From Vulcanimicrobiota bacterium (GTDB taxonomy: Bacteria > Vulcanimicrobiota > Vulcanimicrobiia > Vulcanimicrobiales > Vulcanimicrobiaceae): DNA of 15,550 bases. Location of the stretch: NCBI GenBank assembly GCA_003133025.1, contig PKZK01000264.1:1-15550 (forward strand). The letters are read 5' to 3'. Shown piece by piece: positions 1,396 to 15,549 of this stretch (position 1 is the first letter of the stretch; each line of letters begins with the position of its first letter). The position numbers and the translations under genes are program-made. Under the pieces are notes generated by a model. The model ran no database searches. It was not told the DNA's origin and worked only from the letters and a program-made list of their open reading frames with translations.

Positions 1396-2025
1396 ATGCG
1401 ATATGCCGCCGTCACCCGCTCCGTCCGCGCCCTCGCGGCGACCGTACTGCTCGGCGTTACGGGTTGCTCCGGAGGCGGCGACGCGACGCCGGCCGTGCCC
1501 GCTTCGCCCGCCGCGCAGTCGGTGGCGGCCGCGCACGTCGCGGCTCCCGCGAGTCCGCCGAGCATCGATGCGACGGTCAAGAGCAAAACCGAGAAGATCT
1601 CGGCCGGCGGCGGCAAGCTCACGCTGCCCGCGTTGCCCGCGCTCAAAGGTTCGTTCGGCTATCCCAGCAACAACGCGCCCAGCGGCGCGGAGGCTGCGTT
1701 GAGCGCGAGCCTGAGCAACGCGTTCGATGCGCCGACGCCGTCGGGCGCGAACATCGTCTATTTTCTGCAGGCGGATGTGAAGGCCAGCGGGTTCTTCATC
1801 ACCTTCAATTCGGGAACGGAGAAGGCGAAGATCGAGGGCTCGCTCCTAAATCCGGCGGATTCGTACACGCTGTACGTGTTCATCCCGTCGATCAGTAACC
1901 AGCCGCTCGACACGATCTCCGCCGGCTCGCCTACGGCGAAGCACGTGTTGGAGTTCACCTCGCCGTTCAACAGCGTCACCCTGCCGGTCGACACCGTCGC
2001 CATCTTGGAGTTAGGTCAAAGCTAA
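1396..2025 (+). CDS. Hypothetical lipoprotein
   Basis: MRYAAVTRSVRALAATVLLGVTG-C gives a lipobox (VTGC), followed by a Gly/Ala/Pro linker and a beta-rich domain. High GC3 codon bias. Confidence 0.78.
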   Translation: MRYAAVTRSVRALAATVLLGVTGCSGGGDATPAVPASPAAQSVAAAHVAAPASPPSIDATVKSKTEKISAGGGKLTLPALPALKGSFGYPSNNAPSGAEAALSASLSNAFDAPTPSGANIVYFLQADVKASGFFITFNSGTEKAKIEGSLLNPADSYTLYVFIPSISNQPLDTISAGSPTAKHVLEFTSPFNSVTLPVDTVAILELGQS

Positions 2026-3011
2026 GGCGCGTTGACCTTGGTGAAATCCGCGGGAACCGAGAAGACCGGATCGCTCGACGTGATCGTGCGGATGTTGTTC
2101 CGCTCGATCTCCACGACGAAGTTCCCGCCGCCGCGACCCTGACGGCCGCCGGCCGTCTCGCCGCCGCCCTCGCCGGAACCCGCACCGAATTGGACCGCCT
2201 CGAAATACGCGAGCGTGGAGGGCAACGCCGGACCCGACGAACTGAACGTGAAGCGCGAATCCTTGCGCGTGGACAAAGCGCGGGCGAGTTCGTTGTAGCG
2301 GTTCATCATGCTCGCCATGCCGGCGCTGCTCGCGGCCTGACCCGTTGAACAGTTCAGCCACAACTGATTGCTGTTGGAGACGTACTCTTTACGATTGAGT
2401 TTGCTGCTGTTGCTCGTGCCGTCGGCCTTGGTGGTCACGATCGTTATATCCGACTTGTAGCCGCTCGAGTTGTTGCCGTACACGGTCTTGGGCCCGAGCG
2501 CAGCGTTGACGATCGTCATCGAGACCTTCGTGCCGTCGTCGGTCGGAACGGGTCCGGGCGCCGAGCGCGTACCGCTGCCGCGTTGCGGTTGTTGCGGCTG
2601 ATCCATGGAGACGACGTAATAGGTCTTGGCCTTGAGGTCGAGGTGCGTGATCGTGCGCGCGCCGCAATCGGTGATCGTGGCGGTTTGCAGCGCGGGCGTG
2701 TCGACGCGCTCCTTGTTGCCCGCGACGTAGCGGCTTTCGGCGAGCCCCGTGCTCATCATCGACATTGCGCCCTGGGCCTGGGCCATGGCCGCGCGCATCT
2801 TGCCGAACATGCCGCCGCCGGTCTTGGGCTGCTCGGTAGGCGCCGACGCCGTCTGCCAGTCGGTCGTGAAATCGCCGGGCTCGAGCGTGGCCAACTCGGC
2901 ATTGGCCTGGAACTTGGTGATCTGGTCGAAGGCCTGGCCGGACTCCGCGGATGCCGGAATTGCGCCGCCGAGCAAGGCGAGCACGCTGACGAAGACGAGG
3001 GTGCGCTTCAT
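2022..3011 (-). CDS. Secreted hypothetical protein, DUF4412-like
   Basis: ATG 3011 with GAGGT SD. Signal peptide MKRTLVFVSVLALLGGAIPASA. ITDCGARTITHLDLKAKTYY and the C-terminal FSVPADFTKV resemble DUF4412-type proteins (recalled similarity, not searched). Confidence 0.75.
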   Translation of the reverse strand: MKRTLVFVSVLALLGGAIPASAESGQAFDQITKFQANAELATLEPGDFTTDWQTASAPTEQPKTGGGMFGKMRAAMAQAQGAMSMMSTGLAESRYVAGNKERVDTPALQTATITDCGARTITHLDLKAKTYYVVSMDQPQQPQRGSGTRSAPGPVPTDDGTKVSMTIVNAALGPKTVYGNNSSGYKSDITIVTTKADGTSNSSKLNRKEYVSNSNQLWLNCSTGQAASSAGMASMMNRYNELARALSTRKDSRFTFSSSGPALPSTLAYFEAVQFGAGSGEGGGETAGGRQGRGGGNFVVEIERNNIRTITSSDPVFSVPADFTKVNAP

Positions 3012-3150
3012 GACTACCTCTGAGGCGTAGGAAGGAAAGCCCCTCGGTTTTCCGAGAGGGCCCTGGTCGGACCTACTCCACCGAGGCGCCGTCCCGGCGA
3101 TGTCCCCGCGCGGAGAGGGGTGACCTCTCGCTCGAAAGGCCGGTGCGGCC

Positions 3151-3180
3151 TTGCTGCTGAGGCGAACGGTGTGATACCTT
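3151..3180 (+). promoter_or_regulatory. Sigma70-type promoter of rpsF-ssb
   Basis: TTGCTG (3151-3156), 18-nt spacer, extended -10 TG-a-TACCTT (3172-3180). Confidence 0.6.
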
Positions 3181-3240
3181 AGATGAGTTTTCCGGGCGGT
3201 CACTCCGCCGAGGAAAGCTCGTGCCGGCCTCGCCGCCACG

Positions 3241-4367: not shown

Positions 4368-7300
4368 ATGGCCGCTCGAGATCCACTCCCCATACGCCGG
4401 GGCGTTTCGACAGTCCGGATGACCGACGATGCGTTCTTCGGCGCGGGCCGAAATCTCGTTTCGCCCATCATGGCCGAGATGATCGCCGGCGTCGATTGGA
4501 GTTCGACGCCGCTCGGCTCGGCCGAGGCTTGGCCCCTCGAGCTACGCACCACGCTGAACCTCGTCCTGGCGAGCCGCTTCCCGATGGTGTTTTGGTGGGG
4601 GCCGGACCTCACGCAATTCTATAACGATGCGTATCTGCCGATCATCGGCGGCAAGCATCCTACCGCGCTCGGGCAACGCGCTCAAGATTGCTGGGCTGAG
4701 ATCTGGGACGTGATCGGGCCGCAGATCGCCGGCGTGTACGATGGCGGTCCCGCGACCTGGAGCGAGGACGTGCTGCTCGATATCAACCGGCACGGCTTCG
4801 TGGGCGAATCGTACTTCACGTGGTCGTACAGTCCGCTGCCGTATGCAGAGGCGCCCAACGGCGTCGGCGGGGTGCTCTGCACCGTGCAGGAGACGACCGA
4901 TAAAGTCATCGGCGAGCGGCGCATCCTGCTCTTGCGCGACTTGGCCGCGCACGGCACCGAGGCGAAGAGCGCGGAGGAAGAGTGCCGCGTTGCCGCCGCA
5001 ACCCTCGCTCGCTACGCGAAGAGCGTTCCGTTCTCGCTGATCTATCTCATCGACGAGTCGGGGACCGCCGCGCGTCTGGCAGCCTGCTCGGGAATCGATC
5101 CGTCGGAAGCGCGCGCGGAGATACTCACCGACGAACTCGAGCCCAAGGCCGGCGCGCCGATACCGCTCGGCGCCTTACGTCATATTCTCAGCCGGCTTCC
5201 GGTGGGGCCTTGGCCCGAACCGCCGCGCGAGGCGGTGGTCGTGTCGATTCAGTCGGGCATGGGACGAGAGGCCGCCGGCCTTCTTGTTGCCGGCGTCAAT
5301 CCGCGCGAGCGCTTCGACGAGCGATACGGCAGTTTCTATGAGCTGATCGCAAGCCAGGTTGCGGCAGCGATCTCGAGCGCTCGAGCCTACGAAAGCGAGC
5401 GGCGCCGCGCCGAAGCGTTGGCGGAGGTGGACCGCGCGAAGACCGAATTCTTCTCCAACGTCAGCCACGAGTTTCGGACGCCGCTGACGTTGATGCTGGG
5501 ACCCTTAGCACGGTTGCTGAGCGAAGCGGATCCCGGCCAGGCGCCGCTACTCGAAACCGCCCACCGCAACGCATTGCGTTTGCTCAAGCTCGTGAATACG
5601 CTGCTCGAATTCTCGCGTCTGGAAGCCGGCCGCAACGAGGCCGTCTTCGTCGAAACTGATCTCGCCAAGCTCACGGCCGATCTTGCCAGCCTCTTTCGTT
5701 CGGCGATCGAAACCCTGGGCTTGCGCTTCGTCGTCGACGTAGACTTGGAACGTCCGGTCTTCGTCGACCGCTCGATGTGGGAGATGATCGTCCTGAATCT
5801 TCTCTCGAATGCGTTGAAATTTACGCATATGGGTCAGATCGGGCTCTCGCTGCGCGCCGACGGCGCGTTCGTCGAACTCACGGTTGCCGATACGGGCATC
5901 GGCATCCCGGCCGGCGACCTGCCTTACGTTTTCGAGAGATTCCGCCGCGTTCGCGGCGCGAAAGCTCGTTCGCACGAGGGGACCGGCATCGGCTTGGCGC
6001 TCGTCGATCAACTCGCGCGTCTGCACGGCGGTTCCATTGCCGTCGCCAGTGAAGAGGGCAGCGGCAGCACCTTCACCGTGCGCATCCCGCTGGGCAGCGA
6101 GCATTTGGATGCCGCGAGCCTGTCCCGCGTGGCCCGCTCGACGTCGTATGCGAGCGTGGTCGATCAATATCTCGCCGATGTCGACTCCACCATCGTGCGC
6201 GCCGACGCGCGTCTGGCTCCGGCGGAAGGCGGCGCCAAGCCGGCTCGCGTCTTACTCGTCGATGACAACGGCGACCTGCGCGATTACGTGGCGCGAATTC
6301 TCGCACCACATCACGACGTCGTTGCCGCTCGCAACGGCGTGGAGGCGCTCGAAGCACTTCGCCGGCAGCACTTCGACCTGATCCTGAGCGACGCCATGAT
6401 GCCGGAGATGGACGGCTTCGAACTCGTTCGGGCCGTCCGGTCGGATCCGGCTTGGGAGACGATACCCTTTATCATGCTTTCCGCGCGCGCGGGCGAAAGT
6501 GCGGCGGTCGAAGGTCTCACGCGCGGCGCAGACGACTACCTGGTCAAACCGTTTTCCTCGGAAGAATTGCTGGCGCGCGTTTTCGCGCAATTGAATGCCG
6601 CCTCGGTTCGCGAACGCGCGACGCGCGAGTTGCGAGCAAATGAAGAGCGCTTCCGCATGCTTGCCGCATCGATGCCGCACATCGTGCTCGAAGGCAGTCT
6701 CGAGCACGGCGTCACGTTCCTGAGCGAGGCCTACAGCACGTATACGGGTTTGGCCGCCGAGACGGGCCACGGTCGTGGCTGGCTCGCGGTCGTACATCCC
6801 GACGACGCTCCCGGCGCGATCGCGAAGTGGGAACTCGCGGTTCGAAACGGCGACGCCTTCGAGGGCGAGTTTCGCTTGCGACGTAACGACGGCGTGTATC
6901 GCTGGCACCTCGGCCGGGCCTTGGCCCAGCGCGATCTCGGCGACGGAAAACTGCGTTGGACCGGAACGATCACCGACATTCACGACATGCGCCGCTCGGC
7001 GCAAGAGCGGGCGTTCCTCTCCGAGGCGAGTCGCATCCTCGCGCAATCCCTCGACCTCGAGACGACGTTGCAGACCTTGGCGGCCATCATGATACCGCTT
7101 TTCGCCGACTGGTGCCAACTCGACCTGACCAATCCCGACGGGTCGATCCGCACCGTCGCGGTCGCGCATCGCGATCCCGAGAAGCACGCGCTGGCCCAGC
7201 GCTTCGTCGGCCGGATTCATCTCAATCCGCGCGCCGAGCGCGGCAGCCCCAGCACGATACGCACGGGCCGCTCGGACATTTTGGAGAACGTTCCCGACGC

Positions 7301-8660
7301 CGCCAAAGACGTGGTGAACGACGCCGCCGAACTCGAGATCTACGAGCAACTCGGCTTGCATTCCGCCGCCTCGATTCCGCTCGTTGCCGAAGGCGAGACG
7401 TTGGGTGCGATTGCGATGGTCTACGGCAAATCGATGCGGCAGTATACGCCCGACGATTTGCCGGTACTCGAGGAACTCGGCCGGCGCGCCGGCGTGGCGG
7501 TGCTCCGGGCCAGGGAGTTCGCACGGGAGCATCGCGTCGCTCAATCGTTTCAAGAGGCTTCGTTACCGCTGGAGTTGCCGTCGCTGCGAGGCGCGACATT
7601 CGATGCGGTCTACGTGCCCGCCAACGATGAGGCACAGGTCGGCGGCGATTGGTACGATGCGGTACGGCTCGCCGACGGTCGCGTGGTCGTCTCGATCGGA
7701 GATGTGGCCGGCAACGGGTTGCACGCTGCGGTCACGATGGGCAACATGCGCCAGATCATCCGCGGCATCGCGCAGGTGCACGCGAGTCCCGCACTCATGC
7801 TCGACGCCGCCGATCGTGCGCTCCGGCTCGAGCATCCCGACCGTTTCGTGACCGCGTTCGTCGGCGTGTTCGATCCCGTCGCCTCCACGTTCGCGTATGC
7901 GTCCGCAGGCCATCCGCCGCCGATGCTACGGCAGCCGGACGGAACGATCGAGTTTCTCTCCGACGGCGGATTGCCGTTGGGTCTGCGTCAGATTGCCAAA
8001 GAGACCGGCAAGACGATCGCCCTCAGCCCGGGCTCTCACCTGGTGCTCTATACGGACGGCTTGACGGAGGCAGCGCGCCGGCCCGCCGACGGTGAGGCGC
8101 ACTTACGGGAGATACTCAGCGCGGGTACCGTTTTGAGCGCCGAACATCCGGCGCAAGCGTTGCGGGACGCAATCTTCGACGGCGTGCCGGCGAAGGACGA
8201 CGTGGCCATTCTCGTGATGGGCATCGATCCGCGCGTCTCCGCCGGCGCGACGCCCGAACGCGAGGTCATTCAGCGCTGGTACTTCGACACGCCGGATGCG
8301 CAAGCCGCGCAGGCGGCCCGCCGCGCATTCGCCGACGGTCTTCGCGAGCGCTCGGCCGATGCGGAAAGCGTCTACAAGGCCGAAGTCGTCTTCGGGGAAC
8401 TCGTGGGCAACGCCGTGCGCTATGCTCCGGGCCCCGTCGAGGTGACCGTGGATTGGACTGGGGTGATGCCGGTCTTGCACGTCCTCGATCGAGGTCCCGG
8501 GTTTCATCACGTGCCCGCGCTGCCGCGCGACGTGTACAGCGAATCGGGACGCGGCTTGTTCATCATCTCGCTGCTGAGCAAGGATTTCAGCGTTGCGAAA
8601 CGGCCGACGGGCGGAAGTCACGCACGGGCGTTGCTCGGCCTGTCCTCACGGGCTTTCTAG
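4368..8660 (+). CDS. Multidomain hybrid sensor histidine kinase / response regulator / SpoIIE (PP2C) phosphatase / RsbW-like Ser/Thr kinase
   Basis: N-terminal DWSSTPLG PAS-like region and GAF; H-box FFSNVSHEFRTPL (His codon 5466); NLLSNALKFT, DTGIGI, GTGIGL; REC VLLVDDN..SDAMMPEMDG..VKP (Asp codon 6390); PAS WLAVVHPDD; GAF; PP2C VGGDWYD, IGDVAGNG, YTDGLTE, DDVA; C-terminal ELVGNAVRYA, DRGPG, SGRGL. Alternative start ATG 4419. No evident TM helix. Confidence 0.93.
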   Translation: MAARDPLPIRRGVSTVRMTDDAFFGAGRNLVSPIMAEMIAGVDWSSTPLGSAEAWPLELRTTLNLVLASRFPMVFWWGPDLTQFYNDAYLPIIGGKHPTALGQRAQDCWAEIWDVIGPQIAGVYDGGPATWSEDVLLDINRHGFVGESYFTWSYSPLPYAEAPNGVGGVLCTVQETTDKVIGERRILLLRDLAAHGTEAKSAEEECRVAAATLARYAKSVPFSLIYLIDESGTAARLAACSGIDPSEARAEILTDELEPKAGAPIPLGALRHILSRLPVGPWPEPPREAVVVSIQSGMGREAAGLLVAGVNPRERFDERYGSFYELIASQVAAAISSARAYESERRRAEALAEVDRAKTEFFSNVSHEFRTPLTLMLGPLARLLSEADPGQAPLLETAHRNALRLLKLVNTLLEFSRLEAGRNEAVFVETDLAKLTADLASLFRSAIETLGLRFVVDVDLERPVFVDRSMWEMIVLNLLSNALKFTHMGQIGLSLRADGAFVELTVADTGIGIPAGDLPYVFERFRRVRGAKARSHEGTGIGLALVDQLARLHGGSIAVASEEGSGSTFTVRIPLGSEHLDAASLSRVARSTSYASVVDQYLADVDSTIVRADARLAPAEGGAKPARVLLVDDNGDLRDYVARILAPHHDVVAARNGVEALEALRRQHFDLILSDAMMPEMDGFELVRAVRSDPAWETIPFIMLSARAGESAAVEGLTRGADDYLVKPFSSEELLARVFAQLNAASVRERATRELRANEERFRMLAASMPHIVLEGSLEHGVTFLSEAYSTYTGLAAETGHGRGWLAVVHPDDAPGAIAKWELAVRNGDAFEGEFRLRRNDGVYRWHLGRALAQRDLGDGKLRWTGTITDIHDMRRSAQERAFLSEASRILAQSLDLETTLQTLAAIMIPLFADWCQLDLTNPDGSIRTVAVAHRDPEKHALAQRFVGRIHLNPRAERGSPSTIRTGRSDILENVPDAAKDVVNDAAELEIYEQLGLHSAASIPLVAEGETLGAIAMVYGKSMRQYTPDDLPVLEELGRRAGVAVLRAREFAREHRVAQSFQEASLPLELPSLRGATFDAVYVPANDEAQVGGDWYDAVRLADGRVVVSIGDVAGNGLHAAVTMGNMRQIIRGIAQVHASPALMLDAADRALRLEHPDRFVTAFVGVFDPVASTFAYASAGHPPPMLRQPDGTIEFLSDGGLPLGLRQIAKETGKTIALSPGSHLVLYTDGLTEAARRPADGEAHLREILSAGTVLSAEHPAQALRDAIFDGVPAKDDVAILVMGIDPRVSAGATPEREVIQRWYFDTPDAQAAQAARRAFADGLRERSADAESVYKAEVVFGELVGNAVRYAPGPVEVTVDWTGVMPVLHVLDRGPGFHHVPALPRDVYSESGRGLFIISLLSKDFSVAKRPTGGSHARALLGLSSRAF

Positions 8661-10715: not shown

Positions 10716-10744
10716 ATTATAATAACGGCTGGCACTCTCGTCAA
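10716..10744 (-). promoter_or_regulatory. Sigma70 promoter of hsp20
   Basis: Minus strand TTGACG (10744-10739), 17 nt, TATAAT (10721-10716). Confidence 0.88.
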
Positions 10745-10755
10745 GAGAGTGCCAG
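10729..10755. promoter_or_regulatory. CIRCE operator (HrcA binding site)
   Basis: CTGGCACTC-N9-GAGTGCCAG versus consensus TTAGCACTC-N9-GAGTGCTAA. Straddles the hsp20 -35 box. Confidence 0.9.
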
Positions 10756-11772
10756 CGCCGGTGCGACCCGGGTTCCGAGCAACTCGATGGCGCGCATCAG
10801 CTTCGCGTGCGGCAGGCCGGCCACGCTCATCTGCAGGTTGACGCGCGCGAGGCCGCCGAGCGCCTCGCTGTGGCGCAGTATCTTCTGCGCGACTTCCTCG
10901 GGATTGCCCACCAGCAGCGCGCCTTCGGGGCTGCGCAGTGCGTCGAATCCGGCGCGCGTCACGGGCGGCCAGCCTCGCTCGGCGCCCGCCTTGGTGAACG
11001 CCCGCGCATAGCCGGGGAAGAAGTCGTCGATGGCCTGGCCGGTGGTGTCGGCGACGTAGCCCAGGGCGTGCAGACCGACCTTGAGCGTCTCCGGCGCGTG
11101 CCCCGCGCGCCTGCCCGATTCACGGTAGAGATCGACCAACGGACGGAAGCGATGCGTTTGTCCGCCGATGATCGCCACCATCAAGGGCAGTCCGAGCGTG
11201 CCCGCGCGGGCGAACGAGGCGGGGGTTCCGCCGACGCCGAGCCACACCGGCAGCGGATCCTGGAGCGGCCTTGGGTAGACGCCCTGACCGGTCAGGGCGG
11301 GCCGGAATTTACCCGACCAGTGGACGTGTTCGTGCGCGCGCAAGCGCAGCAAGAGGTCGAGTTTCTCCGCGAAGAGCTCGTCGTAGTCGTTGAGGTCGAG
11401 CCCGAAGAGCGGGAACGATTCGATGAACGAGCCGCGCCCGACGACCAGTTCGGCCCGGCCGCCCGAGAGCAGATCCAGCGTCGCGAAATTCTGGAAGACG
11501 CGCACCGGATCGGCGGCGCTGAGCACCGTGACCGCGCTGTGCAGCCGAATGCGCTGCGTGCGCGCCGCCGCCGCACCCAAAATGACCGCGGGCGCAGAAT
11601 CCAGGAAGTCGCGGCGATGGTGCTCGCCGATGCCGAATGCATCGAGACCGCAGCGATCGGCGTGCTCGATCTCGTCGATGAGGTTGCGCAGCTGCTGCGA
11701 TGCATCGGCTGCATTTCCGGGTTCGTCGCCGAGATAGGCTGCGGCAAAGCTGTCGACGCCGAGTTCGATCAC
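10741..11772 (-). CDS. LLM-class flavin-dependent oxidoreductase, Atu2307/SP_0267-like
   Basis: [77 protein letters not shown]. Start placed at GTG 11772 from the family N-terminus; uncertain. Confidence 0.9.
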
Positions 11773-11886
11773 CGTGACCCGCTTTGGTGGCGGTCCGGCC
11801 GGCCCTGCCTCGACGTGGACCGCCCGATCTCGCCCCGAGTCGTCGATAACGAAACTTTTCTTCGAGCATGCCCGCGCTTCACTCTC

Positions 11887-11915
11887 TTGACCGGCGGCGG
11901 CCTGCGTGTTACGGT
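11887..11915 (+). promoter_or_regulatory. Sigma70-type promoter of the ssuACB operon
   Basis: TTGACC (11887-11892), 17 nt, TACGGT (11910-11915), with extended TG at 11907-11908. Confidence 0.7.
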
Positions 11916-11962
11916 CTCGGCAGCGACGCACCGTGCGGGACCGTCCGATACTCGAAACGATC

Positions 11963-11989
11963 GATCCGCGTCCTCGCGGATTTTTTGTT
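11963..11989 (+). terminator. Intrinsic terminator inside the ssuA 5' leader (attenuator)
   Basis: Stem ATCCGCG / CGCGGAT (11964-11970 / 11975-11981) with a TCCT loop, then TTTTTGTT. It lies about 20 nt before the ssuA ATG on the same strand. Confidence 0.75.
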
Positions 11990-12010
11990 GCGCTTCACCC
12001 GGGAGTCACG

Positions 12011-13003
12011 ATGTTCACGACCTCACGCCGCTCGTTCTTGGCCGCCGCCGCCGCGCTTTCTGCGGTCGCGAGCGCGCCGCGCTTGGCCGCGCGCGCCGCA
12101 TCGCTCGACGAACTCGGGATCGACTACGCCTACTACAATCCGCCGAGCTTGATCCTCAAGCAGCAAGGCTGGCTCGAGGAAGCGCTGAGCAAGAACGGCA
12201 CGAAGGTCAACTGGATCTTGTCGCTCGGTTCCAATAAGGCGAACGGTTTTCTCACCGCTAACGCGGTGCAGTTCGGTTCGACGGCGGGCAGCGCGGCTCT
12301 GCTGGCGCGGGCCAACGGCTCGCCGATCAAGACCGTGTTCCTGTACTCGCGTCCCGAGTGGACGGCGCTCGTGGTTGGTAAGGACTCGCCCCTCAAGAGC
12401 GTCACCGATCTCAAGGGCAAGAAGGTGGCCGCGACGCGCGGCACCGATCCCTGGTTCTTCCTCATCCGCAGCCTGCGCAAGAACGGCTTGGACATCGGCG
12501 ACATCGAGCTGATCGATCTGCAGCATCCCGACGGGCGCGTCGCGCTCGAGCGCGGCCAGGTGGATGCCTGGGCCGGCCTCGATCCGCACATGGCCGCCTC
12601 GCAACTCGATGCGGGTTCGCGTCTGCTCTATCGCAATGCGGAGTTCAACACGTTCGGTGCGCTCAACGCACGCGAAGATTTCCTCGCCGCGCATCCGGAG
12701 ATCACCGCGGTCGTGCTCCAGCAGTACGAGCGCGCGCGCAAGTACGCGATCGCGCATCCCGACGAAACCGCCAAAATTCTCGCCGCTGCGGCGCACCTCG
12801 AGGTGCGCGTGACCGAAGTGCAAATCGGCCAACGCACCCAGTATCCGTCGCCCGTGCCGGGCAACGCCTATCGGGATACCCTCGCGGGCGTGGTGCCGAT
12901 CGTGCGCTCGGAAAAGTTGGTCGCAAATGCCGCCGATCTCGACGGCGTCGTGCCCGCGCTCATCGATCCGGGACCGGCGCGAACCGCACTCAAGGGTGGT
13001 TAG
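12011..13003 (+). CDS. ssuA: Aliphatic sulfonate ABC transporter substrate-binding protein, Tat-exported
   Basis: Twin-arginine SRRSFL signal; IDYAYYNPPSL, SLGSNKA, FGSTAGSAAL, YSRPEWTAL, KKVAATRGTDP, LQHPDG, DAWAGLDPHMA. GGGAG SD. Confidence 0.9.
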   Translation: MFTTSRRSFLAAAAALSAVASAPRLAARAASLDELGIDYAYYNPPSLILKQQGWLEEALSKNGTKVNWILSLGSNKANGFLTANAVQFGSTAGSAALLARANGSPIKTVFLYSRPEWTALVVGKDSPLKSVTDLKGKKVAATRGTDPWFFLIRSLRKNGLDIGDIELIDLQHPDGRVALERGQVDAWAGLDPHMAASQLDAGSRLLYRNAEFNTFGALNAREDFLAAHPEITAVVLQQYERARKYAIAHPDETAKILAAAAHLEVRVTEVQIGQRTQYPSPVPGNAYRDTLAGVVPIVRSEKLVANAADLDGVVPALIDPGPARTALKGG

Positions 13004-13739
13004 GTTCGTCCTGCCGGTCGCGCTCGTCGCGCTGTGGTTCGCGAGCACTGCGGCCGGCTGGGTGAAGCCGTATCAACTGGCTTCCCCCGGAGCGGTCGCA
13101 AGCGAACTCGGCACGCTCTTTGCGAGTGGGCAATTGCAATCCGACGTGTGGGCCAGCGTCGAGCGCGTGGCGATCGGTTTCGCTTGTGCGTTCGTGCTGG
13201 CGCTGGTTCTCGGCTCGCTCGCGGGGAGCACGCGCGCCGCGCGGCTGGCCATCGATCCCACGTTGCAGGCCATCCGGGCCGTGCCGAGCCTCGCCTGGGT
13301 TCCGCTGATCTTGATTTGGCTCGGCATCGGCGAGCCGGCCAAGATCGTGCTCGTTGCGATCGGCGCGTTCTTCCCGATCTACGTCAGCATCGTGTCGGGC
13401 ATCGAAGGCATCGATCGCAAGTTGCTCGAGGTAGCGCGGGTGCTCGATACCGGCCGGCTCAAGCTGATCGCGCAGGTGATGGTGCCCGCAACGCTGCCGC
13501 AGTTGCTGATCGGCGCGCGCCTCGGCCTGACGCAAGCGTGGCTCTTTCTCGTCGCGGCGGAATTACTGGCCGCCAGTCGCGGGCTCGGCTTCCTCTTGAC
13601 CGACGGGCAGCAACTCTCGCGCACCGATGAAGTGCTCGTCGCCATCTTGCTCTTCGCGCTGTGCGGAAAACTGACCGACATGGGCATGTACGCGCTCGAG
13701 CGGCGCTTGACCGGCTGGGCGGATACCGCGACCGCATGA
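12996..13739 (+). CDS. ssuC: Sulfonate/nitrate-type ABC transporter permease
   Basis: Multiple hydrophobic helices; IRAVPSLAWVPLILIWLGIGE, GAFFPIY, EAA-like IDRKLLEVARV, LVAAELL. GTG start overlaps the ssuA end. Confidence 0.9.
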   Translation: MVRFVLPVALVALWFASTAAGWVKPYQLASPGAVASELGTLFASGQLQSDVWASVERVAIGFACAFVLALVLGSLAGSTRAARLAIDPTLQAIRAVPSLAWVPLILIWLGIGEPAKIVLVAIGAFFPIYVSIVSGIEGIDRKLLEVARVLDTGRLKLIAQVMVPATLPQLLIGARLGLTQAWLFLVAAELLAASRGLGFLLTDGQQLSRTDEVLVAILLFALCGKLTDMGMYALERRLTGWADTATA

Positions 13740-14440
13740 TCGCCGTCGCGCTCGCCGGCTTGCGCAAGGCCTTCGGCGGACACGATGTGTTCGCGGGCTT
13801 GGAATTAACCGTGCTCGAACGCGAGACGCTGGCAATCCTCGGTCCGAGCGGCTCCGGCAAGTCGACGTTGTTGCGCTGCATCGCCGGCTTGGAGACGCCC
13901 GATGAGGGCAGCGTCGCCGTCAACGGCGAGGTCGGCTACGTCTTTCAAGAACCGCGACTCTTCCCGTGGCTCGACGTCGAGGGCAACGTCGCGTTCGCGG
14001 CACGCACGCCGCAGGAGCGGGCGCGCGTTGCCGAGGTGATCGAACTCGTGGGCTTGACCGGTGCCGCGAAGCGGCTGCCCAAGCAACTCTCGGGCGGCAT
14101 GGCGCAACGGGCGGGCTTGGCCCGTGCGCTCGTGCGCAACCCGAAAATTCTCTTGCTCGACGAGCCGCTCGCGGCGCTCGACGCGCTCAAAAGGCTCGAA
14201 CTCCAGGCGGCGATTCGCGACATCGTTCGGCTCACGCACGCGACCGCGGTCCTGGTGACGCACGACGTGAACGAGGCGCTCTACCTCGCCGACCGGGTCG
14301 TGGTGCTCGGCGGCCATCCGGCGACGATCGTGCAATCCCAGGTGCGCAACGGCGTGCCGCCGATCGACCGCGACGAGATTCTCCGCGCGCTCGGCGTTCG
14401 GCTCGACGCGGGCGAGAGCGCCCGAGGCGAAGCGATCTAG
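13736..14440 (+). CDS. ssuB: Sulfonate/nitrate-type ABC transporter ATP-binding protein
   Basis: Walker A GPSGSGKST, FQEPRLFPW, LSGGMAQR, Walker B LLLDEP, VTHD. ATGA overlap with ssuC. Confidence 0.9.
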   Translation: MIAVALAGLRKAFGGHDVFAGLELTVLERETLAILGPSGSGKSTLLRCIAGLETPDEGSVAVNGEVGYVFQEPRLFPWLDVEGNVAFAARTPQERARVAEVIELVGLTGAAKRLPKQLSGGMAQRAGLARALVRNPKILLLDEPLAALDALKRLELQAAIRDIVRLTHATAVLVTHDVNEALYLADRVVVLGGHPATIVQSQVRNGVPPIDRDEILRALGVRLDAGESARGEAI

Positions 14441-15549
14441 CGCGCCGCCGGCAACGTGCGGTCGAAGAAGTCTCGGGCCAACGCCGCCGTCGCCCGATGG
14501 ACGCCGACGCGACCGGCCCCGGCGTCGCTGCAGATCGGCGCGAACGCGCGAGCACCAGCCGGAGTGCAGTCGGTCAGGAACGTGTAGTGGCCTACGCTCT
14601 TCGGCCAGAGCGTCAGTTGCGCGTCGGGGATTGCCAGCGCATCGGGAATGACGTTGTCGGCGACCGGCAGGATCGGATCGCCGAAACCTGCGACCAGTTC
14701 GACCGGCACTGCGATGCTCGCGAGGCTCTCGGGAAGAATCGCCGGTCCGAGCGCGGGCGCGATCGAGAACACCGCACGCACGCGCGGATCGCGGTGCGAC
14801 TCCGCGTTGGCCGCCTCGGCGGCGCGATACGCGGGATCGCTCGATGCGAGCGCGGCGGCGCGCGCTGCGACGTTCGGAACGGTCGGCGTCGCCTCGTCCG
14901 TGCACAGCGGCGTCGCCGGATGGTGCGCGCAGTAGGGCGCGATCAGCGCGGGATTGGCGCGCGCTCCGGCGATGGCCAAGACGGTGTAGCCGCCGAGCGA
15001 AAAACCCGCGGCGCCGATGCGCTTCGGGTCGACGCGCGTGCCCAGATCGGCCTGGGCCAGCACGCCGTCGATAACGTGAGAAAGATCGTCCGCGCGTAGC
15101 CACCACAGCGTCGCACCCGCTACCGTCGGCGCCTCGAGCGCATTGTTGCCCGGATGATCGACGGAGGCGACCAGATAACCGTGAGCCGCGAGCGACGCGC
15201 ACAACCACGAGAGATCCATGGCCGTTCCGCCCGTGCCGTGCGAGACCACGATGAAGGGTAGACGAGCCGGAGCCGGCGCGATTGCGGCGTCTTGGGCGGC
15301 CTCGCCTTCCACGAAGAACGGTGCGCCCGGCGGCCCCACCTCGATCGGGCGCACCGTCGTGCCCGCGACCGCCGGATACCAAACGATGACGGTGAGCTTG
15401 CCCGACGTATTGCCGCGCAGCGCGGTGTTGCCCGCGACGCTGAGATACCGGTAACCCACCGGTGCGTCCGCCGCCGCGGCAACGCCGGCGGCGAGGCCGA
15501 AGCAGAGCGCGCCGAACAACGCGAGCCGTTTAGCGTACGGGAATTGCAA
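14437..15549 (-). CDS. Secreted alpha/beta hydrolase (dienelactone-hydrolase / PAF-AH-like family); start may lie at or beyond the window edge
   Basis: Signal peptide; VWYPA, VVSHGTGG, DHPGNN, nucleophile elbow GFSLGG, acid GDPIL, GHYTFL histidine. Stop overlaps the ssuB stop (CTAG). Confidence 0.87.
   Translation of the reverse strand: MQFPYAKRLALFGALCFGLAAGVAAAADAPVGYRYLSVAGNTALRGNTSGKLTVIVWYPAVAGTTVRPIEVGPPGAPFFVEGEAAQDAAIAPAPARLPFIVVSHGTGGTAMDLSWLCASLAAHGYLVASVDHPGNNALEAPTVAGATLWWLRADDLSHVIDGVLAQADLGTRVDPKRIGAAGFSLGGYTVLAIAGARANPALIAPYCAHHPATPLCTDEATPTVPNVAARAAALASSDPAYRAAEAANAESHRDPRVRAVFSIAPALGPAILPESLASIAVPVELVAGFGDPILPVADNVIPDALAIPDAQLTLWPKSVGHYTFLTDCTPAGARAFAPICSDAGAGRVGVHRATAALARDFFDRTLPAAR

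Follow-up and report, generated by a model that had tools for sequence, protein, structure and literature searches.

In other phyla, the leaders of sulfur genes that are controlled through a terminator include SAM riboswitches and T-boxes. The window studied here (the whole stretch of 15,550 nucleotides that was analysed, from a Vulcanimicrobiota bacterium) has a promoter and a premature terminator ahead of ssuA, and a first-pass annotation had proposed for this leader a compact sulfur-status switch of a new class, pending a comparison with Rfam. When this comparison was made, none of the Rfam 15 covariance models matched the window at gathering score, and the best hit, with an E-value of 0.19, lay far under the cut-off; neither SAM riboswitches nor T-boxes matched it at gathering score or at an E-value below 0.19. 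The SAM-I riboswitch was likewise not found in the genome to which the window belongs, which is 80% complete.

Compared with the classical leader-peptide attenuators of the trp, his, and leu type, here represented by the Cys/Met version at ssuACB in the family, the window has promoter, premature terminator, and first gene in the order, and at the locus, in which its orthologues have them. The orthologues of its ssuA carry the full anatomy of such attenuators, with an upstream open reading frame (uORF) and the 1:2, 2:3, and 3:4 pairings. The window leader, however, is without a uORF or sensing codons; it falls short of the orthologous length by about 90 nt, its hairpin is weaker, and the model of the family misses it.

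Cysteine codons are used for control in two other systems. In mycobacteria, leaderless short ORFs with polycysteine tracts are reported to control translation by hiding the Shine-Dalgarno site, and not termination (bioRxiv 10.1101/834739). The uORFs of the window's relatives are likewise Cys-rich and lie at or near the start of the transcript, but the mycobacterial system differs from that of the relatives, where the terminator is intrinsic, and from the window, where the ORF is absent. In Actinobacteria, runs of Cys codons occur in a short ORF before sulfur genes and are described without conserved terminator hairpins (PMC1262725). The relatives share these Cys runs; the terminator is conserved among them and is what remains in the window. 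Finally, the orphan “ssuB-ABC-leader” of bacilli is likewise short, has a premature terminator, and precedes a gene that bears a sulfonate ABC annotation, with no sensor named in the passages on it (PMC2965389). It is A+T-rich, conserved across several bacilli, and present before a second gene as well. Compared by eye, it has no resemblance to the window leader, which occurs once in its genome and is not shared by its orthologues.

The Short Leader and Its Operon

Table 1. Features of the ssuA leader, its operon, and the divergent gene in the window.
Feature	Positions	Strand	Basis or remark
Luciferase-like monooxygenase, divergent (Atu2307/SP_0267 family)	10741..11775	-	TIGR03858 above cut-off
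-35 hexamer, TTGACC	11887..11892	+	Predicted from sequence; TTGAC-type -35 in 72 orthologous leaders by selection
Extended -10, TG-N-TACGGT	11907..11915	+	Predicted from sequence; under promoter-scan threshold
Pre-terminator stretch, 47 nt, without uORF	11916..11962	+	Orthologues place Cys/Met uORF and antiterminator strand here (about 90 nt more)
13-mer with 4-bp inverted repeat	11927..11939	+	Weak hairpin or possible operator; 12/13 bases common to L058 upstream DNA
Strand pairing with terminator loop and 3′ arm, about 10 pairs, one bulge	11931..11941	+	Competition at chance level
Intrinsic terminator, 8-pair hairpin (-11.8 kcal/mol) and UUUUUUGUU tail	11963..11989	+	Folding, chance test
ssuA ribosome-binding site, GGGAG	12001..12005	+	Sequence
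ssuA, sulfonate-family ABC substrate-binding protein, 330 aa	12011..13003	+	TIGR01728, 233 bits against a cut-off of 163.5
ssuC-like permease ORF, true start probably near 13000	12927..13739	+	PRK11365, E 1e-54, below cut-off; dN/dS 0.08
ssuB-like ATP-binding protein	13736..14440	+	ABC ATPase families; dN/dS 0.16

The promoter of the window leader fits the type found in the family: the spacer between TTGACC and the -10 hexamer is 17 nt, and TACGGT is the -10 hexamer in 5 of the 72 orthologous leaders. The first-pass annotation had called it a good sigma70 promoter with a start at about 11921. The elements do lie where they were placed, but the promoter matches only 8 of the 12 consensus bases and is absent from the output of the promoter scan, and transcription more likely starts at 11922–11923, to judge from the 7–8 nt spacing in other leaders of the same genome.

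From the -10 to the ATG, the distance is 95 nt, against a median of 184 nt in the orthologues. The sole ATG, GTG, or TTG located 5′ of the hairpin is the GTG at 11933, which is in the ssuA frame and has no Cys or Met codon after it ahead of the terminator; the absence of a Cys/Met-rich uORF from the window leader, as reported in the first pass, is thus confirmed, and a leaderless poly-Cys ORF was also looked for there and not found. An ACG at 11926 is in the right place for a uORF start, but it was rejected as a candidate, start codons that are off by one base being too common within the 7-base range; the two Cys codons in its frame sit in the U-run, 3′ of the hairpin, and therefore cannot control it.

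An assembly artefact as the origin of the short leader was considered and is ruled out. Contigs from three of four other sequencing runs span the leader without gaps and with no or one differing letter (the fourth run gives partial cover), and mis-assembly is therefore rejected. The runs containing half or more of the window DNA are metagenomes from peat, moss, and permafrost. As regards RNA, the assembled contigs of one run cover nothing of the locus, those of a second cover only the monooxygenase gene, and the third run (X19) has a 191-nt contig that covers 11737–11927, with the start of the monooxygenase gene and the ssuA promoter, and that ends at 11927; the terminator and ssuA are uncovered in all three. 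Since assembled RNA contigs show no starts, ends, or strand, this coverage counts neither for nor against any reading of the leader.

The existence of an intrinsic terminator upstream of the ssuA ribosome-binding site, also claimed in the first pass, holds. The hairpin at 11963–11982, with 5 G-C pairs among its 8, leads into a T-run at 11981–11989; of 2953 random 95-nt windows drawn from the genome, only 3 contain a hairpin and U-run of comparable strength, and the terminator is therefore real, beyond chance. It is weaker than all 71 of the scored orthologous terminators, for which the median is -24.2 kcal/mol. Its hairpin is perfect and its U-run intact, whereas two decayed leaders of relatives, L269 and L063, have mismatched stems. 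Together with its tail, it is similar to the orthologous terminators (8 of 300 shuffles were as good), a likeness that is generic because unrelated attenuators of the same genome outscore it on the same profiles.

The gene downstream is indeed ssuA, as the first pass had it (Table 1). The ssuA, ssuC, and ssuB ORFs are all intact, and their dN/dS values of 0.08–0.16 (0.09–0.14 for ssuA against the relatives L058 and L127) indicate purifying selection. Equilibrium folding predicts that 94–99.9% of full leaders form the terminator; yet the operon that follows it is under purifying selection, and therefore some route past the terminator is needed. Among the loci L001–L136, examined with flanks of 1.5–2.5 kb, the divergent monooxygenase stands beside ssuA only in the window's own copies and in L058. 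Further upstream in the window, an ORF of 1430 aa (4368–8660, +) has, on reading, the look of a hybrid sensor, with PAS/GAF, histidine kinase, and receiver regions as well as a PP2C-type phosphatase and a C-terminal anti-sigma-like ATPase region, and a convergent pair of ORFs (2022–3239, -, and 1360–2025, +) has signal-peptide-like starts and no function evident by eye.

In the genome of the window (G000, 80% complete), NIR_SIR (sulfite reductase) and PAPS_reduct domains were not found, and only one luciferase-like gene was found, with no second gene of this SsuD type; a TauD gene accompanies a second ABC operon on contig C155. The same genome has Met-, Leu/Val/Ile-, and aromatic-type leaders of the leaderless-uORF design, and no Cys-rich leader of this design was found in it. 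The individual leaders seen in G000 are as follows. At C8:20742–20880 (-; L218), a near-leaderless Met-rich uORF, MIRSQFAMSMRMTGCAPRGLVLLHVR, and a terminator precede a cystathionine gamma-synthase/lyase-like gene, and the model of the ssuA leaders gives this element 44.6 bits. Two attenuators stand back-to-back on C103, one with a Leu-run uORF before leuA (14908, -) and one with a Leu/Val/Ile-rich uORF before an ilvB-like gene (15006–15141, +). At C81:5334 (+), a leaderless uORF with WYWYF and a terminator lie before a DAHP synthase-like gene, and, at C65:445 (-), a TTGACT promoter, a GTG frame of 34 codons, and a U-rich hairpin lie before a short frame.

Attenuators Upstream of Orthologous ssuA Genes

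SsuA relatives occur in 69 of the 347 genomes of the family, a tally that includes the unpublished genome G258, and 80 of 528 metagenome loci were kept. The orthologue set consists of 84 distinct ssuA loci with at least 62% identity and at least 150 nt of upstream DNA. A strict filter, based on a TTGAC promoter and a uORF with 2–7 Cys that starts 5–11 nt after the -10, was passed by 71 of the 84, which have a near-leaderless, Cys/Met-rich uORF (examples are MTALMCCCCCIMCLPTGAGAALH and MPALIACTSPCCRPALGRRSFHLI). Four of the 13 loci that missed the filter (L082, L117, L118, and L120) have a Cys uORF on reading, and nine have none (L058, L063, L080, L083, L103, L053, L087, L005, and the outgroup L126). 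Thirty-six further regions from genomes gave 35 scorable loci, 31 of which passed a looser uORF filter. A terminator was scored by the finder in 27 of the 35, and five of the misses are due to a mis-set start.

The structure of these leaders was found with RNAalifold, which, on 49 of the 72 leaders, gave a Cys-codon/3′-uORF helix and the terminator. The competing helix joins the 3′ end region of the uORF to the 5′ arm of the terminator. It has 85.4% of its cells paired, a level reached in none of 500 shuffles, against 25–49% in slid registers, and six of its nine pairs show two-sided changes, 29 such changes being present in all; this result is somewhat overstated because the structure was read from one member and the kin are related. 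A ribosome masked at the last Cys codon, as compared with one at the stop, costs the terminator more than 2 kcal/mol of its advantage in 65 of 71 leaders; in 39 of the 71, the effect is matched by at most 1 of 30 shuffles. On these structural results, the orthologous element is a trp-type attenuator.

The working of such a leader would be the following. A ribosome would start on or close to the very first base of the RNA and would stall on the Cys/Met codons when cysteine is short. With the ribosome stalled, the strand just 3′ of the Cys codons would capture the 5′ arm of the terminator, so that the polymerase reads on; with cysteine sufficient, the ribosome would cover that strand and the terminator would form. 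The anatomy found in the relatives suggests such a response to cysteine.

The design extends beyond ssuA. A covariance model of the leaders, run on five relatives, found the Cys/Met-peptide design before sulfite reductase and metY genes too, and the same design before ilvB, ilvC, and aromatic genes, where the peptide is rich in the amino acid concerned, the names of the target genes being assigned by reading translations. No regulatory Rfam family matched 17 such leaders or loci or three decayed ones. To judge from sequence, there is a family-wide sulfur regulon that is built on leader peptides with intrinsic terminators. Cys/Met uORF attenuators were seen before sulfite reductase, metY, PAPS-reductase-like, and other genes at L226, L229, L230, L231, L234, L235, L243, L244, and L227 (genomes G013, G023, and G325). 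A second copy of ssuA, at L179 (G358:C1:1424500–1430500), has its Cys uORF attenuator intact and its coding region broken by frame changes.

Probable Loss of the Leader Peptide

To place the window, 103 SsuA proteins (without 8 duplicates) were put into a maximum-likelihood tree by a quick search, with rooting at the midpoint and with SH-aLRT as the only support measure. The window SsuA groups with L058 and L127 (SH-aLRT 99), and these three next join L031, L032, L033, L061, L063, and L065 (SH-aLRT 95), of which L031, L032, L033, and L065 bear a uORF; this group, in turn, sits inside a clade of mostly uORF-bearing loci. Because of this nesting, the uORF is likely to be the ancestral state and to have been lost in the lineage of the window. 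The sequence of L127 is cut inside ssuA, and L058, with 88–89% amino-acid identity and the same divergent monooxygenase, is the nearest relative with upstream DNA; no terminator, no TTGAC promoter, and no -35/-10 at matching spacing were found in that DNA.

Loss of the uORF at ssuA recurs among the relatives, at L269, L053, L087, and L063. The first of these (G094:C23:13620–14320) can be aligned with L107 throughout the leader, the differences in length being some small gaps and one in-frame deletion of 24 nt that takes out the Cys codons, and what is left is a five-residue uORF, the promoter, a frayed hairpin, and the U-run. In L053, only the promoter remains; in L087, the promoter and a hairpin without a U-run; and, in L063, a mismatched terminator without a Cys uORF.

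A direct trace of descent was looked for in the 47 nt before the window terminator. Against profiles of the 3′ halves of the orthologous leaders, 915 and 715 of 1000 shuffles scored as well or better, and the best local match among the 84 leaders was equalled by 78 of 300 shuffles. A 14-mer common to the window and to L081/L082 was rejected, since it is not significant across the set at this same 78 in 300. The covariance model of the family gave the window leader 3.2 bits (E 5.3) and did not recognise it, and it gave two other attenuators of the same genome 44.6 and 37 bits.

The short leader itself was sought elsewhere. No second copy was found in its own genome by nhmmer, blastn giving only matches of 13–18 nt, and none was found in the 347 family genomes. 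The blastn matches in 209 of these 347 were rejected, all of them having E-values of 1e-4 or weaker; of the two longest, one lies within a glmM-like coding frame, and a terminator follows neither. Pattern matches in GTDB species genomes, 22 in all, are from unrelated taxa and at about the number expected by chance, and the short leader was not found there. Nor was it found in viral contigs, which gave a single match without context and no viral relative of ssuA.

A partial view of the short leader was obtained in another organism or strain. A contig of 924 nt from run X15 (record 3), with upstream DNA that differs from that of the window, matches 11875–11931 with 5 differences in 57 nt, and the 30 bases visible past 11931 are window-like with three small changes: a base missing at 11932, a one-for-two change at 11939, and a one-for-three change at 11950. 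The contig stops 71 nt past 11931, and the terminator and downstream gene are beyond view. The short leader is, in this partial view, common to the window and at least one other organism or strain. The changes at 11932 and 11939 hit the helices proposed as the switch, altering the GCGGGAC strand and the CGCA-CCG-UGCG loop; the insertion at 11950 sits in the bulge of the 11946–11963 helix.

A Proposed Remnant of an Attenuator

The reading that we prefer, with a probability of about one half, is that the window leader is a remnant of the Cys/Met leader-peptide attenuator of the family and acts as a fixed, leaky brake on ssuACB. Rather than a new riboswitch, it is likely to be what is left of a cysteine-sensing switch of a known kind. 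In the lineage of the window, the start codon and the Cys codons would have been lost, and the terminator would descend from the ancestral one. Until the last bases of the hairpin are made, 11931–11941 is predicted to be able to pair with its loop and 3′ arm, and, by this chance competition, a fraction of the polymerases would pass the terminator regardless of sulfur. The leader would be sulfur-blind; it is likely that it no longer responds to sulfur.

In favour of a remnant are the same locus, the same promoter type, the nested position of SsuA, the recurrent loss among relatives, the chance level of the pairing (see below), and the failure to find the short leader in the genomes searched, along with the presence, in the window's own genome, of the leaderless-uORF design at genes for Met and for the branched-chain and aromatic amino acids. 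Against it are the 47 nt without detectable homology to the orthologous leaders, the intact hairpin, and the X15 contig, which keeps the short leader; the predicted near-complete formation of the terminator ahead of an operon under purifying selection also weighs against it, and related genomes do not count as independent samples. Since the window leader has neither a uORF nor an antiterminator beyond chance, it is not filed as a member of the attenuator family, only as its likely derivative. As for the sulfur-status control proposed in the first pass, a terminator between the promoter and ssuA is indeed a mark of sulfur-related attenuation, but a new compact sensor is not supported.

Alternative Pairings and Other Explanations

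The pairings on which the first-pass proposal was based are present in the sequence: CGCA-CCG-TGCG at 11927–11937, GCGGGAC at 11935–11941, and the helix of CGAT (11946–11949) with ATCG (11960–11963) and its TCG-AAA-CGA. Their strength is another matter. Folded alone, 11927–11937 reaches only -2.0 kcal/mol, and 11946–11963 is unfolded at 37 °C. In the leader extended to 11989, the proposed antiterminator fold has -15.5 kcal/mol against -23.5 for the terminator fold. With the leader truncated where the hairpin ends, the most stable fold that lacks the terminator pairs 11931–11941 with 11970–11979 and lies 1.7 kcal/mol above the terminator fold. Dinucleotide shuffling of the 41 nt upstream gives a gap as small in 402 of 1000 trials; the GCGGGAC pairing, possible as it is, is therefore at chance level for a G+C-rich leader such as this. 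The leader as a whole folds no better than shuffles (z 0.22). As to a helix that would hide the Shine-Dalgarno site in the mycobacterial manner, the minimum-energy fold of 11915–12015 pairs 11915–11920 with 12000–12005, but 11915–11920 lies upstream of the predicted start.

Another possibility, which we consider unlikely, is that a new compact switch, either a riboswitch or the target of an RNA-binding protein, replaced the leader peptide, with 11927–11963 sensing and 11931–11941 invading the terminator. In one peat lineage, the ribosome-based cysteine attenuator would then have given way in place, an equally unlikely event, to an RNA switch of 45 nt that arose anew, senses a ligand or a protein, and makes use of the former promoter and the position of the terminator. 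Such a switch would fit an intact terminator before a conserved operon, the lack of detected homology to the ancestral leader, and the small energy gap of the alternative fold, which dominates while the hairpin is incomplete: the predicted probability of the terminator is 0.20 with a transcript end at 11979, 0.94 at 11981, and 0.999 at 11989. The X15 contig keeps the short leader, its insertion at 11950 falling in a bulge, and the exchange of sensing systems at one gene is documented (PMC2965389). However, two in five shuffles come as close in energy, the same contig alters the proposed switching helices at 11939 and 11932, and the nearest relative, L058, has no terminator. The conservation of the alternative pairings in orthologues, which the first pass had made a test of its proposal, failed, no orthologous leader examined being short and the usual sensor there being a Cys/Met leader peptide. 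The want of covarying copies also speaks against a new class of switch: the leader is single in G000, not found in the 347 family genomes, seen otherwise on one partial contig, and without an Rfam match. The ANTAR domain (PF03861) had no match in the genome, but it had none in 14 of 14 control genomes either.

It is improbable, too, that the terminator is near-fully effective, such that the operon would be almost silent from the window promoter as a result of recent decay and the product would be a 60–65 nt RNA with no role. The predicted terminator probability of 0.94–0.999 agrees with this, as does the failure to find sulfite reductase, PAPS reductase, or a second SsuD-type gene in the 80% of the genome that is available. 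Three intact ORFs with dN/dS of 0.08–0.16 argue against it; the missing genes may reflect an assembly gap, and sulfite reductase does not track with the attenuator in five relatives (three of five genomes, with both states mixed).

A further explanation, about as improbable, places control at the level of the DNA: the inverted repeat at 11927–11937 would be an operator just past the start, one that may also serve the monooxygenase gene, and the terminator would be a passive leftover. L058 has this divergent gene as well but lacks a terminator; the resemblance of 11927–11939 to its upstream DNA was reached by 2 of 300 shuffles in a k-mer test but by 136 of 2000 in local alignment, and L058 has no -35/-10 at the same spacing. 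No regulon emerged: the metY look-alike is inside the hom coding frame, and the cysK look-alike occurs in 1 of 30 cysK upstream regions (three of these loci being from the unpublished genomes G020, G027, and G028). Translation from the GTG at 11933, which would drive a ribosome through the hairpin and couple read-through to translation, is very improbable. Ahead of the ATG, 40 codons of this frame are free of stops, and the X15 contig keeps the frame, since its two changes past the GTG sum to three extra bases; but such retention has a one-in-three chance, and the ssuA frame is open for at least 26 codons in 62 of 72 ordinary leaders. The GTG also has no Shine-Dalgarno site and, at 17 nt from the -10, falls beyond the 5–11 nt range of real uORF starts.

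Implications

If the window leader is a remnant, as we prefer to think, it would be a small example of attenuator decay. It would also carry a caution for genome scans, in which a lone leader with a promoter, a terminator, and plausible alternative pairings may be a leftover without a sensor. If, on the other hand, the short leader proved to be ligand-responsive, it would be a new switch arising where the ancestral regulator is known, or a riboswitch caught at birth, with an ancestral state known from about 100 relatives. A literature search covering titles and the openings of abstracts, with subscription papers mostly outside its reach, found no paper on a system combining a Cys/Met uORF with an intrinsic terminator. 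It is this system at the level of the family, with its Cys/Met uORF, intrinsic terminator, and covarying antiterminator, that is of greater interest than the leader of the window.
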